From a virus (Duplodnaviria > Caudoviricetes), in the IMG/VR virus record IMGVR_UViG_3300049009_000104, positions 1-31,581 of that record: 31,581 nucleotides of DNA; one strand, given 5' to 3'. The notes beneath the pieces are model-generated. The model saw only the letters and a list, made by a program, of their open reading frames with translations, searched no databases and had not been told where the DNA came from. A program made the position numbers and the translations under genes. Shown here piece by piece: positions 9,660-16,501 of the stretch; the stretch's first letter is position 1; the number at the start of each line of letters is the position of its first letter.

Positions 9660-10145
9660 TTAACTCCTTGACATCATAAAAAAATCAGATCCGTCAGCGC
9701 CATACTTTTTCATCAGACCCTCAATTTCAAAACCAAGGGCAAGACCCCAGCGCACCGCTCTCAAGTCAGCGCATCTTACTGTGATCTGCAAACGATGCAA
9801 ATTTCTTGATATCACAATGTAATCAGCATAGATCTGGGCGGCACGAGTCATGGTTTTCCCATATTTTCTAAGCCTTTCCTCGCAGTTGAGCCACATCTCT
9901 GCGACTCCTTCCCAAACATCTACAGCGCCAAAAACGGCAACAGGCTTGCTTTGTAATATCGCAGTGATAGCATGACCTTGATTGGCTTGGGCTTCAATAA
10001 GTTGAGCCAATGAACTGCTTTTTGGCAGGGTTTCCCTTATGGAAGGGTCAATTCTCAGGGTTTCTACATGGCCTGCATTGAATGGAACCCAAATTAACGG
10101 AGAATTTTTGGGTAAAAGTTCAAATATATCAAGCGAATACATCAA
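9660..10145 (-). CDS. GNAT-fold acetyltransferase-like protein
   Basis: WEGVAEMW...LHRLQITVR...AVRWGLALGFEIEGLMKKYG GNAT signature; start uncertain. Confidence 0.75.
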   Translation of the reverse strand: MMYSLDIFELLPKNSPLIWVPFNAGHVETLRIDPSIRETLPKSSSLAQLIEAQANQGHAITAILQSKPVAVFGAVDVWEGVAEMWLNCEERLRKYGKTMTRAAQIYADYIVISRNLHRLQITVRCADLRAVRWGLALGFEIEGLMKKYGADGSDFFMMSRS

Positions 10146-11661
10146 AATCTGCGGCTGTAACTGAGGACGCTATGTAGATCTTGCCATTGGATAGCTGAGA
10201 TCCTCTGGTTAACTGGCGATATTCACCGCCACCAGTCATCAAATAGCCAAAAGCGTCACCAACGTGGCTATGCTCATTCTTATTTGGGCTATCTCGGAAC
10301 CTTTCATGCCCAGCACCGACTGCAATACGCTTGAAATGGTATCCACCAGACAGGGATTTCCGCAATAACTTGCAAGATTTGTTGACCAACAGGCCAGGCT
10401 TGCCTGAAACCATGCGATTCATGGGAGCGGCTGCGGCTTCCCTACGAGCTTTGAAGTCGTTAGTTGCTGTTGGCTCTGCTCTGAGTCCAAGTGAGCGCAG
10501 ATATTCAAATGCCGTTGTCTCATAGATGGCATCTCTTTGCATACCAGCAGGGTCACCCCATATTTTTACTTCATATTTAGGGAACTTGGTTTGCAATTCA
10601 GCCATCAAAGTCTGACCAAACCGCTCCAACCCCATGTCAAAGGTAACGATTTCGTGCAAAACACGCCACTGTCCATTGTTCATGCGCTGTCCAAAGACAG
10701 CGGCTGGGGTCAAACCAAAGTCAAGTCCGACCTGAATAGGGTAATTTGGATCAGGCTCTAAGTCAGCAGCCATGATGTTGTCGTCATACTCATGCCAAAC
10801 CGACTTACCATCCTGCACAAAGGTATATTTACCCTCAGCATAACAGCGGATCCAGTCTAGGGTTTTCCCTGCCAACTGTTGTAGGTAGTAGCCAGGCGGT
10901 AAATTCTTAATGTTCTCAGCCTTGGAATTAATCTTCCACCATTTGGCTGATGCAAAGATATGATCGTTGGCTTCTGGGTTTTCGGGTAAATCTTCTGATG
11001 GAACTTCGATTACCCCGCCTGGCTGTTTGAAGAACTTCCATGCGTACTTGCCTGTGATGGGTTCTTTCTCTGCAAGCTTGTGCCACCAATGGTCATCATC
11101 CATTGGGTTAGTGTCCATCCATATTCCATGCCATGTGGCTCCACCATCTCTTTTTGTAGGATAACGTCCAACTCGATGGGTAAGGCCGTCAATGACTGCT
11201 TTTGGTAATTCTTTGGCTTCGTTAACCCAAGCACCTGTGAGTTCAAGCGAAAGCAATTTACGGACATCTTTAGGCTGGTCAAGAGCCAAAAATATAACCT
11301 CACAATCAATCCCCGCTGCATCACCTCTGGGTGGTAACTTAATGTGATGCGTAATTGGTGGCGTGTGCAGGATTGGGCCATATACATTCTCTGGAAAAAG
11401 GTCTGCCCAAGTCTTGAGCGTGGTGGTCTTGAGTTCAGGGTAGCTGTTACGCACAATGACAAAGCGGCTGTACCTGATGCCGTCCACAGGGGATGGCTTT
11501 TGTTGCACTGCACGAATCATTATCTTGGCGGCACAGACATAGGACTTGCCAGATCCGACTGGCCCCATAAGTCCAGTGACAAAGGATTTGTCCTGCAAGA
11601 ACTTAAATGCAGTCGGTGAAGACCGCAAGTCAATATTGATACCAGCGATTTGATCAGACAT
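10129..11661 (-). CDS. terL: Terminase large subunit
   Basis: Walker A GPVGSGKS, Walker B-like GAWVNE, coupling motif DTNP, nuclease GLDFG and HSHVGDA. Confidence 0.95.
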   Translation of the reverse strand: MSDQIAGINIDLRSSPTAFKFLQDKSFVTGLMGPVGSGKSYVCAAKIMIRAVQQKPSPVDGIRYSRFVIVRNSYPELKTTTLKTWADLFPENVYGPILHTPPITHHIKLPPRGDAAGIDCEVIFLALDQPKDVRKLLSLELTGAWVNEAKELPKAVIDGLTHRVGRYPTKRDGGATWHGIWMDTNPMDDDHWWHKLAEKEPITGKYAWKFFKQPGGVIEVPSEDLPENPEANDHIFASAKWWKINSKAENIKNLPPGYYLQQLAGKTLDWIRCYAEGKYTFVQDGKSVWHEYDDNIMAADLEPDPNYPIQVGLDFGLTPAAVFGQRMNNGQWRVLHEIVTFDMGLERFGQTLMAELQTKFPKYEVKIWGDPAGMQRDAIYETTAFEYLRSLGLRAEPTATNDFKARREAAAAPMNRMVSGKPGLLVNKSCKLLRKSLSGGYHFKRIAVGAGHERFRDSPNKNEHSHVGDAFGYLMTGGGEYRQLTRGSQLSNGKIYIASSVTAADFDVFA

Positions 11662-12082
11662 CTTGTACGTCAGGTGATTGAATGGTTACTCCAATAACAG
11701 ACGGCTTTTGTCCATCATCAGGAGTGTCGAGTAAACCAGATGCTTTTGCCAGTATTCGCAGTACTTGAACCTTGTCAAACAGTTCAATATCTATGGTGGC
11801 ATTGCCTTCTTTGTCTACACGCTGGCTGATCTTTTTTATAGATTGCAGTGCGTGTTCAGGAATCTTAGAACTGGCTTTGACCCTCACATTACCAGAGTCA
11901 TCCCACTCCATGATGTCGGTGATCTTGGTGTTTGCCATGGTGAGCAGGCTATAAGCCACTGCTTCACGGTTGGCAACAATGGTCTGCGAGCGTTCAATGC
12001 GCTGGACAACATTACGCACACCTCCCCATCCACGCACGGAGGGGTAAGTGCCGTTATTCTTTTTCTCAACCTTGTCGTTCAT
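11654..12082 (-). CDS. terS: Terminase small subunit
   Basis: Directly upstream of terL; IDIELFDKVQVLRILAK motif; ATG overlaps the upstream stop (TGATG). Confidence 0.8.
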   Translation of the reverse strand: MNDKVEKKNNGTYPSVRGWGGVRNVVQRIERSQTIVANREAVAYSLLTMANTKITDIMEWDDSGNVRVKASSKIPEHALQSIKKISQRVDKEGNATIDIELFDKVQVLRILAKASGLLDTPDDGQKPSVIGVTIQSPDVQDV

Positions 12083-12231
12083 CAATAGCAGTTGGTGTTG
12101 CAGTTATTGCCATAACAGCAAGTTGTGCAAGTGACGTACTTACCATTCTGATAGTAGGTATGAGTCACACAAGATGCCCATACAGTCAAAGAAGAGGCAG
12201 CGATCCATATGCCGATTAAAGCTTTTTTCAT
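12082..12231 (-). CDS. Secreted cysteine-rich mini-protein (49 aa)
   Basis: Manual ORF MKKALIGIWIAASSLTVWA-SCVTHTYYQNGKYVTCTTCCYGNNCNTNCY; SD AGGAG; coupled to terS. Confidence 0.75.
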   Translation of the reverse strand: MKKALIGIWIAASSLTVWASCVTHTYYQNGKYVTCTTCCYGNNCNTNCY

Positions 12232-12611: not shown

Positions 12612-12797
12612 TGGGGCCATCACTCAGCCCTCCAAAAGGCAGGCAGCTTACCAATTGGGATAAACGTACCGCATCCATCAGGACTTCCAGTAGCACGAGC
12701 GAACAGGGCCATACAGGTGGAGCCAACAACTAACAATCGTTGGTCAGGTTAGATAAACAAGGTGCTGCATCTCTAACGAGATCTAATCACTTTTTTT
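12612..12797 (+). ncRNA. Candidate structured ncRNA (~185 nt)
   Basis: Plus-strand promoter upstream, several hairpins including two GAT-AAAC...GC-ATC stem-loops, ends in a T7 run. Confidence 0.35.
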
Positions 12798-12830
12798 AGT
12801 GAGTGCCATAGTTCGTCCACCATCTAGGTT

Positions 12831-12864
12831 TTGTCCACAGGACAATAAATGCCATTTGTCCACA
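12831..12864 (+). promoter_or_regulatory. Two DnaA-box-like nonamers (TTGTCCACA); possible origin
   Basis: TTGTCCACA at 12831 and 12856, 8/9 match to TTATCCACA, downstream of an HTH initiator-like gene. Confidence 0.4.
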
Positions 12865-13089
12865 AGAAATTAATAGCATCCAGCAACTAGCTACCAAGCT
12901 GATTATTAGAAAAAAATTGTGTGAGATACCCCTACGGTAAGGTGGGGGGTCGGGGGGGCAAAGGGTCGATTCTAAGCTGGAAGTATTACAAGCAGCTGTA
13001 AGCCTATCCCCTGCCATACCGAGCAGAATTGAAGTAATACCTGCTTTATACAATGTCCATTATGTTAACTAATCAGCGAGTAGTAGCAA

Positions 13090-13734
13090 TTAAGTTAACA
13101 TTCTAGCCAGCACCTGCTCGATGTCAGCCACTGTCGCTGCAGGCCCTGCCTGCTGCTGCGCTGCCGCGAATATCTCAGCACCTACTGCTTTGCTTAGTTG
13201 CTCAATTGTCATTTCATCTATAGTCTGTTGACTATCTGCCTGCTTCAGATTACTAACCCGCTGGTCAGTTACTTTATCTGCTTTGCGTTTTCCCATGGTT
13301 TCCCCCTTTGCCCCTGTAGGCTGTTGATTTTCTTGCATATATGGCGCTGTTTCACCTGTAATCCCTATGATGTCAGCAAGGCTTAGATCTGCCTTGTATA
13401 TGACCTGCCTTGTATGCGCTCGTTCACCCTTAAAACCGTAATAAATGACCTTTACATATCCTGCTTTGATCAAAGCCCTGGTATGCACTGCTGCCCTGTT
13501 TAGGCTGATTTTGAAATGATCTGCTATCCTTTGCAGGCCCACCCAGGTCAACCCTGCCCTGTTGCTGTAAGCACAGAGCATAAGCAGTACCCTTAGCTGC
13601 ATTTCAGTTATTGATCTGTCAGTGATAGCCCTAAACGGAACCACAGCGAAATGACGCAGATCTGGCTGCTTTTCTTTTTGCTTGATCCGTGGCTTTTTGG
13701 GCAGGTTTATAGGTACTGGCTGCATGGCCTGCAT
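13090..13734 (-). CDS. Winged-HTH protein, putative replication initiator
   Basis: FAVVPFRAITDRSITEMQLRVLLMLCAYSNRAGLTWVGLQRIADHF...ALIKAGYV, typical of phage HTH initiator N-termini. Confidence 0.6.
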   Translation of the reverse strand: MQAMQPVPINLPKKPRIKQKEKQPDLRHFAVVPFRAITDRSITEMQLRVLLMLCAYSNRAGLTWVGLQRIADHFKISLNRAAVHTRALIKAGYVKVIYYGFKGERAHTRQVIYKADLSLADIIGITGETAPYMQENQQPTGAKGETMGKRKADKVTDQRVSNLKQADSQQTIDEMTIEQLSKAVGAEIFAAAQQQAGPAATVADIEQVLARMLT

Positions 13735-13747
13735 TGTAAGCAGGCAT

Positions 13748-13770
13748 AAAAAAGCCCCATTAAAGGGGCT
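13748..13770 (-). terminator. Rho-independent terminator of the early small-gene operon
   Basis: AGCCCC-UUUAAU-GGGGCU followed by U5. Confidence 0.8.
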
Positions 13771-13789
13771 GTAAAGGGTTTATCTGCTG

Positions 13790-14002
13790 TCAGTGTCTAT
13801 CTGCGCCATGGTTAGCCAGTCGCTGGGCTGCTCTGATCTTACGCACTGCTGCGCTGACTGTTGACTGTCTACAATCTACTAGGGCTGCTGCATTTTGCTG
13901 GGTACGATTAAACACAATGCATAACTTAGCAGATAGCCAGGCCTTACTGCCAGGCCTTAATCTAGCCAGTACTGCTAGGGCTTCAAATTGATCAAACTGC
14001 AT
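13790..14002 (-). CDS. Small HTH transcriptional regulator (TrfB/KorA-like)
   Basis: 70 aa; QFEAL...TQQNAAALVDCRQSTVSAAVRK HTH pattern. Confidence 0.55.
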   Translation of the reverse strand: MQFDQFEALAVLARLRPGSKAWLSAKLCIVFNRTQQNAAALVDCRQSTVSAAVRKIRAAQRLANHGADRH

Positions 14003-14011
14003 AACAGCCCC

Positions 14012-14248
14012 TTAGATTGTGCAACAGCCACAGCAGGGTGAATCTATGCACCTGCCTGTTGCATTACGAGTAAACGTGCGATATCTGCCCTGATCGTTTA
14101 GGGTTATCGTGTTAACCCGACAATCCCCTGGCTCGCTAAACCATGCTTTTCTGCTGGCAGTGTCATAGGTTATCTGATCCCCTGGCCTGATCGCTGCCCC
14201 TGATATGGAGCAGGTTCCCTTGTACTTAGCTATCATGCTTTTTTGCAT
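14012..14248 (-). CDS. Cys-rich small early protein
   Basis: 78 aa; AKYKGTC..G..I..GDQI.Y and C-terminal GRCIDSPCCGCC. Confidence 0.7.
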   Translation of the reverse strand: MQKSMIAKYKGTCSISGAAIRPGDQITYDTASRKAWFSEPGDCRVNTITLNDQGRYRTFTRNATGRCIDSPCCGCCTI

Positions 14249-14249
14249 A

Positions 14250-14336
14250 TCAGTACCCCATTAAAAGAAAAACGATTAAGAAAACAGCAGCCACAATGCA
14301 GGCCAGTAGTACAGGTTTATCGGTTTTATCTATCAT
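14250..14336 (-). CDS. Single-TM mini-protein (28 aa)
   Basis: Manual ORF MIDKTDKPVLLACIVAAVFLIVFLLMGY; ATGA overlap; fills the gap exactly. Confidence 0.55.
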   Translation of the reverse strand: MIDKTDKPVLLACIVAAVFLIVFLLMGY

Positions 14337-15007
14337 GCTGCCACCTGCTTTAATTGGATAACCTTATGCATTTTCTTGCCATGGGCAGGATATGCAATAA
14401 CCTTAATCTTTTTATCCCAGCAGGCCCTGCAGCCACTACACTGGCCTGCATTCTCATAAGCCCTGCATAGTGTTACCCCTTTAGGCAGGCTGTCGCTGTC
14501 AGCCACAATAACCGATCCATGCAGCCCTTTTGTAAACTTCCCTTCTATGCTGTCACTGCTAAACCTAACCGATACATTCGACAATGCAGCCATGGCTGTT
14601 AAAACCTGCCTGAATTTAGGGAATTTATGCATCCTAGTAGGCAGCCAGTGCTTAACCCATGGTGTACGCTGCATAACTTCTAAGATCTTTTCAGCCAGTG
14701 CCAGGTTATAAATATCCCCACTGTCAAACCACCTGAAATAACTATCTTTTGCCAGTGCCTGTACCATGTCATCAGCCCAGTCTATGCGCTGCCAGTCTAT
14801 GCGGTTAAATTCCCTAGGGGCTTTAACATTCGGAAACCTGTAGTTTCCTGTAGTGGCATAGCAGCCCTTACAGGCATCTACTAAAACCCCTGGGCTTTCA
14901 ATACTGCCAGGGCAGGTATCCAATGCCTGCAGCGACCATGAGCGGATACCGTCTAACTTAGACGTTATGCTGATTTTTACTGCTGCTGCTGTTTTAGTGT
15001 GTTTCAT
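14333..15007 (-). CDS. Gp88-like putative Fe-S / radical-SAM-related protein
   Basis: 224 aa; CPGS...CKGCYA, FRWFDSGD, HWLPTR, C-terminal C-x8-CxxCxxC. Confidence 0.7.
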   Translation of the reverse strand: MKHTKTAAAVKISITSKLDGIRSWSLQALDTCPGSIESPGVLVDACKGCYATTGNYRFPNVKAPREFNRIDWQRIDWADDMVQALAKDSYFRWFDSGDIYNLALAEKILEVMQRTPWVKHWLPTRMHKFPKFRQVLTAMAALSNVSVRFSSDSIEGKFTKGLHGSVIVADSDSLPKGVTLCRAYENAGQCSGCRACWDKKIKVIAYPAHGKKMHKVIQLKQVAA

Positions 15008-15188
15008 TTTGAAATTCCAATAATGTTAGGGCTGCTTTTTTGCATAATTCGACCTGCTGCTCTGTTAAGCCCTGCGTTAACTGTATGGCTATCTGCGTGG
15101 CCTGCTGGGCTTTACTGTCGCTGGGCGCAGTGATAGCCAGTGCCAGGGCATTAACTAACATGGCCTGCTGCGTGTGTAAATAATTCAT
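14994..15188 (-). CDS. Hypothetical early protein
   Basis: 64 aa; LALAITAPS...VELCKKAA; ATGA overlap. Confidence 0.65.
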   Translation of the reverse strand: MNYLHTQQAMLVNALALAITAPSDSKAQQATQIAIQLTQGLTEQQVELCKKAALTLLEFQNETH

Positions 15189-15340
15189 GCTGAAACCCCC
15201 ATAATTAAACGTTTAAGATCTTTTATTGACCTGCCTGTCATATCTGACAATTCCCGCAGGGTAAGGTTTAGATGGCTGTCGTAATAATCGACAATTTCAG
15301 CATCAGTGCTGCTGTAATTAGGCTGTTTATCGTCATTCAT
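15185..15340 (-). CDS. Small HTH-like protein (51 aa)
   Basis: Manual ORF MNDDKQPNYSSTDAEIVDYYDSHLNLTLRELSDMTGRSIKDLKRLIMGVSA; ATGA overlaps at both ends. Confidence 0.65.
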   Translation of the reverse strand: MNDDKQPNYSSTDAEIVDYYDSHLNLTLRELSDMTGRSIKDLKRLIMGVSA

Positions 15341-15558
15341 GCTTGCACCTGTGCTGCTTTTTTTGCCAGCTGATCAGTTAACGTCACAATGCCACGTAGC
15401 AGATCGACAGCCCTGCGCTTGTAAATTACTGGTGAACCAGTGTGAACCACTGAAAACCAGCCCTGTGGTTCAATATTCACCACACAGCTGCGATTTTTAA
15501 CTGCGAACCATGCGGACATATATGCATCGATCAGATGTGTTTTTTCAGTATGTGTCAT
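15337..15558 (-). CDS. Hypothetical early protein
   Basis: 73 aa from MTHTEK; ATGA overlaps at both ends. Confidence 0.65.
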   Translation of the reverse strand: MTHTEKTHLIDAYMSAWFAVKNRSCVVNIEPQGWFSVVHTGSPVIYKRRAVDLLRGIVTLTDQLAKKAAQVQA

Positions 15559-15746
15559 GCTGCCACCTGCCATTTGATCTGCTCTGCTGCTACTTCAATT
15601 TCATAGCCCAGTTGCATAATTTGATCTAAGGTTTTTTCTTTCAGGGTTTTAGTGCCTGCAATTGCAGCGAATAGCTGGGCCTGCTCGCATACAGGGTAAA
15701 CAACCCAGCTACCATAATTTTTATCTAATCGGATTGTGATTTTCAT
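15555..15746 (-). CDS. Hypothetical early protein
   Basis: 63 aa MKITIRLDKNYG...YPVC..A.LFA.IAGTKTL...LGY; SD AAGGGG. Confidence 0.7.
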   Translation of the reverse strand: MKITIRLDKNYGSWVVYPVCEQAQLFAAIAGTKTLKEKTLDQIMQLGYEIEVAAEQIKWQVAA

Positions 15747-15747
15747 G

Positions 15748-15909
15748 TTATGCCCCTTCATTTTCGAGATATGCAGCCACTGGCATAAACAGCAGTGAAC
15801 CGACAGCAGCGAATAAAAAAGCAAAATCCTGTGTACCGAATGCATATCCGATAAAACACAGGCAGGATTTAAGCCCCAGGTACATGGTAAAACTATAGTC
15901 TTTTCTCAT
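15748..15909 (-). CDS. Small two-TM membrane protein, first gene of the early operon
   Basis: 53 aa from MRKDYSF; SD TAAGGGG. Confidence 0.6.
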   Translation of the reverse strand: MRKDYSFTMYLGLKSCLCFIGYAFGTQDFAFLFAAVGSLLFMPVAAYLENEGA

Positions 15910-16000
15910 TTCAAGCCCCTTAGTAGGTGGTTTCAGAATGTATCGGCGCTGAATTGCTAACCGATGCACAGAATATAACGCAGCCACCTACTGTATGTAA

Positions 16001-16015
16001 TAGGGACAAACCCTA
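16001..16015. promoter_or_regulatory. Palindromic operator-like site TAGGG-N5-CCCTA
   Basis: tagggacaaacccta; similar site tagggaaagtaccta at 18744. Confidence 0.45.
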
Positions 16016-16184
16016 GTATTTGAATTTATTTATTGACAGTCAACGAAAATGCAACAGCCATGGCCTGACTGGCTGCTGATCTGCCCTGATCTGCTGCCCC
16101 TGCTGGCAGGTTTTCCCATGGATTAACCGTTGATTGATACTTTTGTTTTCAACAGGCTGATTTTAGGTATTACTGGCTGATTTT

Positions 16185-16200
16185 CTGTGGTTTTATACAG
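16185..16200. promoter_or_regulatory. LexA (SOS) box-like site
   Basis: CTGTGGTTTTATACAG(TA) matches the CTGT-N8-ACAG beta/gammaproteobacterial consensus. Confidence 0.55.
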
Positions 16201-16282
16201 TAATCCATGCCACCTACACCCAGCGAAAAATTGAAATTGGGGGTATTCCAAACCCCACTGGTATGGGGCGCATGGAAAATTT

Positions 16283-16501
16283 CTATTCAGGATCGCTGGA
16301 ATTTTTCCCAGCATTTGCCTTCTGCGCCAGCATGAAATTCACCAAGTCATCCTTGATTCCCTTGTAAAAACCATATGGCTCGGCATCAAGCTCCTTTGCT
16401 CTAAGCCATGCATGATCCTTGACTGCTGGCATACTAGCCATCCATATCAGATGGTTCAGCACAAAAGCGTAATGCTCAGGGTCAGTGTCTTTCATCAACA
16501 T
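16283..16501 (-). CDS. Hypothetical protein
   Basis: 72 aa ORF at the end of a coupled operon. Confidence 0.55.
   Translation of the reverse strand: MLMKDTDPEHYAFVLNHLIWMASMPAVKDHAWLRAKELDAEPYGFYKGIKDDLVNFMLAQKANAGKNSSDPE

Follow-up and report, generated by a model that had tools for sequence, protein, structure and literature searches.

A word-purged island beside the terminase genes of a small podophage, possibly the first DNA to enter the cell

The virus record IMGVR_UViG_3300049009_000104 (Duplodnaviria; Caudoviricetes), whose whole 31,581 nucleotides are called the window here, contains just upstream of the small terminase gene terS an island of 3.3 kb (12,989–16,245) from which asymmetric words of three to six letters have been lost on both strands, palindromic 6-mers being kept. 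The purge is confirmed as genuine; it is found at the level of the duplex and is independent of codons. The explanation favoured here, with a confidence somewhat above even, is that the island is first-entering DNA which avoids asymmetric restriction sites until an inhibitor made from the island acts. The window is that of a podophage with terS, the large terminase gene terL, a portal gene, T7-like tail tube genes, RecE/ERF, RusA, a GH19 endolysin and an O-like replication initiator (Rep). The record starts inside a tail gene without terminal overlap, and about 2 kb of the genome (tail genes) are likely missing from the contig. The nearest isolate is the Methylophilales phage MEP301 (MW452941) with a TerL 75% identical; membership in a MEP301-like group is borne out by TerL, by gene order and by an element upstream of terS, all common to both. 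By analogy with MEP301 the host would be a betaproteobacterium; the TerL relatives at 64–78% come from bins assigned to several unrelated taxa and hence permit no host call. The best-matching metagenome is from freshwater and the phage may be a freshwater phage as well, 22 of the 24 matching sequencing runs (each below 0.2 of the words) being uninformative as to habitat.

A first-pass annotation, made from the letters alone, had described this region as free of CCTC/GAGG, with a single GGAG, and as rich in CTGC, CAGG and CCCT. All of this could be verified. CCTC/GAGG does not occur between 12,633 and 16,579 (12.9 expected in 12,960–16,260, p 5e-6), GGAG/CTCC occurs once in the island, at 14,207 (15.4 expected), and CTGC (112 vs 34 expected), CAGG (77 vs 29) and CCCT (50 vs 15) are enriched about threefold. 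The strongest depletions lie beyond these words, namely in CCAA (6 vs 48 expected) and CAAG (11 vs 51), followed by CAAC (14 vs 48) and ACTC (2 vs 19); AAGA and CATC are likewise among the larger losses. The GC content is nearly constant (46% in the island, 45% in the remainder), and no segment of the window deviates more than the island (G 1123, runner-up 445). A k-mer density scan along the window, using 148 five-mers defined solely on ten islands of relatives, falls from 107–192 per kb outside to 20–25 per kb inside, with 12,989–16,245 as the best segment; the avoided five-mers are about six times fewer in the island than in the rest.

The depletion holds after codon correction, both with the island proteins recoded in core codon usage and with their own codons shuffled; the sum of z2 is 1202 vs 252–362 in eight control gene sets, and 13 words still have z<-3 in the shuffle. 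The spacers are purged too (6 hits in 575 bp inside vs 273 hits in 1,860 bp outside). As had been claimed, the purge reaches down to the Shine-Dalgarno sequences: GGAG/GAGG lies within 20 nt upstream of none of nine island genes vs 21 of 34 other genes. T4 RegB cuts RNA at GGAG, and such ribosome-binding sites would suit the avoidance of an RNA-cutting enzyme on early mRNA. All 15 listed depleted words are, however, equally lost on coding and template strands, which refutes the RNA form. A local mutation bias is opposed by the constant GC, by words that differ between lineages and by the serine codons of the island (TCT 2 vs 15, AGC 21 vs 11), a swap that needs two changes. Taken together, mutation bias and RNA avoidance are the least credible of all explanations considered here.

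Compared with Markov expectation the bias is already visible at three letters (CTC 0.32, GGA 0.56, CAA 0.57), and additional bias appears at greater lengths, where 11 of 469 five-mers and 80 of 1,162 six-mers fall below one third of expectation. Among non-palindromic 6-mers, 223 of 1,699 are at or below 10% of expectation in the pooled islands vs 71 of 2,016 in the rest. No single anchored motif emerged when the 3-mers within the depleted 6-mers were scanned by position. The build-up across word lengths of three to six fits many overlapping sites rather than one. It bears also on a further explanation, according to which the words are targets of another system that reads the duplex (protospacer adjacent motifs of CRISPR, defence linked to phosphorothioates or ADP-ribosylation, or a factor made by the phage) and that acts on the first-entering or first-expressed DNA. 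This would agree with the amount of bias at three to four letters, and restriction enzymes are inferred rather than named. On the other side, the further bias at five and six letters is indicative of numerous longer sites, Gp88 proteins (see below) that are alike occur with unlike word sets, so that Gp88 as the phage factor does not set the words, and an anti-restriction domain occupies the same gene slot in one relative. Such a system is an unlikely cause. Inspected by eye, the 110 most depleted 6-mers include matches to the CstMI, SdeAI and one MmeI site from Table 1 in the accessible part of PMC2731913, a lead only.

Loci of relatives, labelled with L-numbers, were compared in sets collected by TerL, by Rep and by gp88. 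In 14 of 22 sequences (the window, 20 TerL loci and MEP301) the deviation peaks in a segment directly upstream of terS, and the avoided words differ by lineage. The exceptions are five loci of one clade without an island, L057 and L075 with a weak one, and MEP301, in which the island is second best (G 520). Rep (13,090–13,734, minus strand; 214 aa, HTH_36) lies inside the island and is recoded to its word usage. The Rep tree tracks the TerL tree (Spearman 0.86), yet each Rep bears the signature of its own island: with lineage models trained on the island minus Rep, the own Rep outscores the own TerL in 14 of 14 island-bearing sequences, and the Rep genes of other lineages often score strongly negative; the L038 model gives, per 100 bp, +9.8 for its own Rep, -14.2 for that of L039 and -28.5 for that of the window. 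L038 and L039, although identical in TerL, have opposite island signatures, and L042, with a Rep only 38% identical, has the word signature of the window. L217 and L218 share 97% identity over an 11-kb core and 78% in the Rep region, and only L217 has the purge and gp88. Since Rep follows TerL but carries the signature of its own island, and in view of the L217/L218 swap, island plus Rep is a swappable module that is recoded in place. The genomes of this natural pair measure 34,302 (L217) and 32,943 (L218).

A swappable block could also be a foreign one, taken from an unrelated genome and not yet ameliorated. The part of the genome that varies is the island, gp88 is common to several phage families, island and Rep swap together in L217/L218, and a donor history could add to the palindrome exemption discussed below. 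Against a foreign origin stand the equal GC, the eleven islands that share only 79–91% identity and retain the same bias, a Rep that belongs to the family, cores that avoid palindromes in all island-bearing members, and an edge fixed at the terS element across several families; we regard it as improbable.

The left edge of the purge is a 65-bp element of C-run, G-run and A-T stretch upstream of terS (12,902–12,967, minus strand), which is a candidate packaging-initiation site. It is present in 53 of 77 TerL loci, MEP301 included, and most of the 24 lacking it start too near terL. In other podophage families the island adjoins terS-terL-portal and is read away from it in seven of seven annotated gp88 loci, and in L129, L157 and L161 it begins at a similar C-run/A-T element. 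The isolates BcepC6B, Ss1, Hodr, AM24 and MW202484 gave no match to the element model and have no terminus annotation. In the Acinetobacter phage AM24 (42 kb examined) the most deviant segment begins at the start of the record and includes gp88; its ends are not stated in the accessible part of PMC8878043. On the TerL side, 8 of 39 contigs begin at most 200 bp from the terS element. On the Rep side, with 84 distinct loci, 8 end 42–189 bp past the Rep stop and 5 within Rep, the next one at 849. Contig ends gather at the left element from both sides, and at the left element only, which fits with a packaging start there.

We infer from this a terminus and an order of entry. Packaging would start at 12.9 kb and run through terS (11,654–12,085) and terL (10,129–11,661), both on the minus strand outside the island. 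DNA that is packaged last is ejected first, and the island, packed last, would thus be the first unique DNA into the cell. The minus strand carries, in this order, a conserved element where the purge ends on the right (16,195–16,288), promoter-like sites, eight genes of 51–224 aa, a hairpin, Rep and the terS-side element. As this operon would be read towards the entering end, everything up to the 16.0-kb promoter would have to be inside and intact before expression, and this matches a purge that stops 200 bp beyond the early promoter. The first-pass annotation had proposed first-injected DNA with asymmetric sites avoided until roughly ten small proteins are expressed. The first part fits with the adjoining candidate packaging site, the strand symmetry, the lineage-specific words, an ArdC-type gene in the gp88 slot of a relative and known precedents; the palindromes kept in the island do not agree with it. 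As to the proteins, there are eight small genes, and a replication initiator lies in the island as well.

The annotation had left open that the island is a long terminal repeat. In a wider form, the island would be a 3.3-kb terminal redundancy, either a fixed long repeat or a headful overshoot from the 12.9-kb element, entering first with the promoter leading. A second copy would make single cuts at palindromes survivable and would so account for the reciprocal palindrome pattern; the redundancy would comprise about 10% of the genome, with a conserved element at each edge of the island, and the first-step DNA of T5/BF23 is such a repeat according to the available text of PMC10644984. No doubling of depth was seen over the island in three runs: 15 vs 16.3–21.6 in the long flanking contigs of X1, 43.5 vs 43.7–49.4 in X3, and 8.7 and 10.9 vs 12–17 in X11, all weak per-contig Logan values from mixed strains and from samples of unspecified fraction. 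Contig ends gather at the left element only, and a redundancy is silent on why the exemption follows gp88. The strict repeat option has no support from the depths, and the redundancy as a whole is considerably less probable than a non-repeated leading island, but ahead of the other alternatives.

If the island is first-entering DNA, the avoided words would lie at the core of numerous sites of type I, IIG/MmeI-like, type III or bacteriophage exclusion (BREX) systems, all dependent on S-adenosylmethionine (SAM). MmeI-family enzymes require AdoMet (PMC2731913, in part), and the T3 SAMase blocks type I and BREX (bioRxiv 10.1101/2023.02.27.530186, in part). An inhibitor of this kind would spare the SAM-independent type IIP enzymes, and the other 28 kb would accordingly retain asymmetric words and avoid palindromes. 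The most likely inhibitor in the island would be Gp88 (14,333–15,007, minus strand; 224 aa), which matches the GP88 family (PF17338) with 108.8 bits at a gathering cut-off of 24.4. The structure model is confident (pLDDT 95.7) and suggests a radical-SAM-like partial barrel with two cysteine clusters, weakly predicted: in a wide VIA search the top 15 rows are radical-SAM enzymes (Z 4.8–6.1, root-mean-square deviation 4.2–7.0, 138–170 aligned). In an alignment of 98 sequences the first cysteine set (C32, C46, C49, Y50) is conserved, with 13 residues between the first two cysteines vs the spacing CxxxCxxC, and the second (C181, C190, C193, C196) is invariant. Foldseek against named viral models gave only GP88, DUF7227 and Gp37-Gp68 proteins, the Atlas look-alikes are only DUF5131 (at 0.76, a lead only), and the sequence has no match in the PDB. 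As a guess, Gp88 might bind or cleave SAM and act like the T3 SAMase through another fold.

The distribution of gp88 links it to islands. Within the phage family 18 of 18 GP88-family/DUF7227 loci have a strong island (G 465–1393), and in other podophage families the most deviant segment includes gp88 in 43 of 49 loci, the longer ones of 80 gp88 loci fetched. Gp88 proteins 75–81% alike occur with unlike word sets. The gp88 slot is filled by DUF7227 in L042, by a distant GP88 in L038 and by an ArdC-N protein in L032 (6556–7341; 261 aa, N-terminal domain PF08401 at E 5e-9, PHROG 'anti-restriction protein', with an additional weak match to IrrE-like metallopeptidases). From its family name we take the latter to be anti-restriction; ArdC is mostly plasmid-borne. 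Homologues of GP88 number 5,442, and no literature on their function was found, most subscription journals lying outside the search.

Outside the island the pattern is reversed. Palindromic 6-mers of the core have an observed/expected ratio (O/E) of 0.47, 17 of 47 testable ones are at or below 10% of expectation, and the whole window contains CCGG never and CGCG twice, GATC (1.7) and GTAC (1.5) being over-represented. Palindrome O/E is higher in the island than in the core in 19 of 19 island-bearing loci and about 1 in both compartments of two island-free control loci. Despite the exemption CCGG, CGCG and several palindromic 6-mers are still absent from the island. After a 4-mer correction the gap between island and core is narrower and persists in 24 of 26 loci; taken by itself, the window has an island value at order 3 of 0.73, barely above its other stretches (0.36–0.72). 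A word trade-off accounts for CTGCAG (13/86 vs 4/22, order 3) and was rejected as the sole cause in view of the remaining gap. Literature on such a reciprocal pattern was not found, with the same limit of the search.

In this phage family the exemption goes with genes of the GP88 family, one low-GC group excepted. Of the 50 family loci whose length permits scoring, every one of the 18 with GP88/DUF7227 shows it; the eight strong islands that lack such a gene have the palindrome avoidance of their own cores. In the Rep genes, palindromes were observed/expected 183/177 (1.03) in 18 loci with gp88, 38/92 (0.41) in 10 island loci without it and 84/113 in 14 loci without an island, the groups being assigned post hoc, after scoring; about 13 of the 18 gp88 loci are one clade, which leaves about five independent cases within the family, plus other families. 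The counter-case are seven low-GC MEP301-like loci, exempt without gp88 (83/71). SAM depletion was rejected as the cause of the exemption: it would tighten the core, not relax the island, and cores are alike with and without gp88.

Several observations weigh against first-entering DNA protected by an inhibitor, and the palindromes are foremost among them. In DNA that enters first, palindromes should be avoided no less than in the core, but the 18 palindromes banned in relatives' cores occur ten times in the 3.27-kb island and five times in the other 27.8 kb (p 3e-7), and codon-shuffle O/E is 1.01 in island genes and 0.51 in core genes of the window (pooled 1.11 and 0.42); the exemption falls outside what the favoured explanation covers. 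Eight loci have a strong island without gp88 or ArdC, and an island is missing from 13 family members. The fold matches of Gp88 are below the VIA trust level of Z 8, and Foldseek against the PDB gave nothing at E<0.001. The position of the terminus is a prediction from sequence, and runs of G or other homopolymers alone can break assemblies. Headful packaging, a possible mode here, would remove such selection, as argued in the available part of PMC12455610, and for vB_E332 (TerL 41% alike) PhageTerm gave no fixed ends (PMC12860723, in part). Finally, the host enzymes behind the avoided words are putative.

A wider proposal is put forward tentatively, as it is more doubtful than the leading-DNA explanation for the window itself. 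Many small freshwater podophages from several families would possess, next to the packaging site, a purged, palindrome-exempt leading island of 2–4 kb opposed to a core with the reverse pattern, each compartment being adapted to another class of restriction enzymes. The widespread GP88/DUF7227 genes would encode a radical-SAM-like anti-restriction class whose target is either SAM or the DNA that has entered first.

Taken alone, the purge is of a known kind (T5, T7-like phages, Murciavirus); the reciprocal compartments and the GP88 link are new. The parallel to T5 and T7 drawn in the first-pass annotation stands for the asymmetric depletion, as in T7-like leading regions, and fails at the palindromes, which are kept, unlike in T5 first-step DNA. 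As far as PMC10644984 could be consulted, the first-step transfer (FST) DNA of T5/BF23 resembles the island in being a sub-genomic, end-linked block with small unknown genes and a presumed inhibitor, sites being tolerated outside. It differs in its length of 9.7 kb, in being a terminal repeat and in having to be free of type II sites, the island measuring 3.3 kb and keeping palindromes. In addition, the island holds a replication initiator, and its nine proteins gave no PHROG, Pfam or NCBIfam match to T5 pre-early proteins of the A1/A2/Dmp type. The leading region of Autographiviridae (T7 0.3/Ocr; Murciavirus vs Mme2I) is similarly variable, with type I motifs selected against there and kept elsewhere, and in Murciavirus motif loss in this region decides type I sensitivity (PMC12455610, in the part available). 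Unlike there, the window has no match to a phage RNA polymerase or to Ocr, dozens of words are concerned and not one motif, and the operon is likely read towards the end, not away from it. Ocr had no family match, the most acidic island protein having 9 D/E and 6 K/R in 51 aa, and neither a polymerase nor a methyltransferase was found among the 58 window proteins scanned, about 2 kb of tail genes lying outside the contig. With the T3 SAMase the island would share the logic that removal of SAM disables SAM-dependent defence and leaves type IIP active (bioRxiv 10.1101/2023.02.27.530186, in part). Gp88 is distinguished from it by a predicted radical-SAM-like, cysteine-rich fold, its SAM activity being hypothetical. 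MEP301 shares the gene order, the terS element and a deviant segment ending at the element; it differs in being marine and without gp88. In the accessible text of PMC8024684 its termini are not determined and the passages on restriction concern other matters.

Here, what would be site-free leading DNA occurs in small podophages that have no RNA polymerase. Its edges are sharp to the base, and its reciprocal pattern is not foreseen by the standard model. The large uncharacterised GP88 family becomes directly open to test, and from such a pattern the ends of uncultured phage genomes and their order of entry could be placed by sequence. If the proposal is true, the missing words of each island would be a read-out of the asymmetric restriction repertoire of the host population, and GP88/DUF7227 a new class of anti-restriction enzymes with which the exemption travels.

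The further genes of the island are all on the minus strand. Two sigma-70-like promoter matches (15,972–16,043; 9/12 each, the scan overall not being above chance) lie in a stretch (15,952–16,055) that is 75–82% kept in distant relatives. The operon would then start with a 53-aa hydrophobic protein (15,748–15,909) and continue with a 63-aa protein (15,555–15,746; 79–90% identity in close relatives, its Atlas look-alikes being unnamed phage proteins), a protein of 73–78 aa (15,337–15,573; start likely 15,558), a 51-aa acidic protein (15,185–15,340; pI 4.7) and a 64-aa protein (14,994–15,188). The first and the last three of these have no family match. Gp88 is followed by a 78-aa protein with seven cysteines (14,012–14,248; phrog_5664/2656; 44 homologues, none named) and a 70-aa basic protein (13,790–14,002), found in 10 of 19 loci screened, whose L062 homologue has weak HTH/Cro matches. 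PADLOC and NCBIfam gave no match for the island proteins, and apart from Gp88 the small ones belong to no named family. A hairpin resembling an intrinsic terminator (13,753–13,770; a consensus match only) separates this operon from Rep. The right-edge element is near-identical in the close clade, and its first 30 bases are weakly recognisable in L042, L039, L032 and L038. By eye, an extra hydrophobic gene of 28 codons, below the open reading frame cut-offs, is likely behind gp88 (about 14250–14336, minus strand). A 22-nt repeat (14327–14348 and 15549–15570) links a stop codon to the following start and to an AGGTGG ribosome site, and relatives gain or lose genes at these junctions (run X3 skips 15,170–15,555). 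Apart from such short gene-junction repeats, no arrays or long repeats were found in 12.4–17 kb.

The island-free clade (L009, L050, L052, L057, L058) keeps the terS element, has a Rep of about 290 aa and shows no palindrome avoidance (O/E 0.8–1.0). L052 encodes a DNA methyltransferase just upstream of Rep; as the reason for the missing island this was rejected, the gene occurring only there and being absent from 12 L050 proteins scanned. In the low-GC group (L016, L020, L269, L271, L272, L280, L281 and MEP301, all without gp88) CG-containing words and palindromes avoided by the core abound in the segment upstream of the element, which in L016 and L020 has few plus-strand open reading frames. 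Another gp88 phage has a glucosyltransferase-like gene (phrog_842) downstream of its island (L146:11082-11951). On the terS side of the element the window contains, within 12796–12875, a 19-nt sequence twice in direct orientation (12,830 and 12,855; 25 bp apart), which we take to be DnaA-box-like; similar arrays of the type TTATCCACA precede the island in L168.

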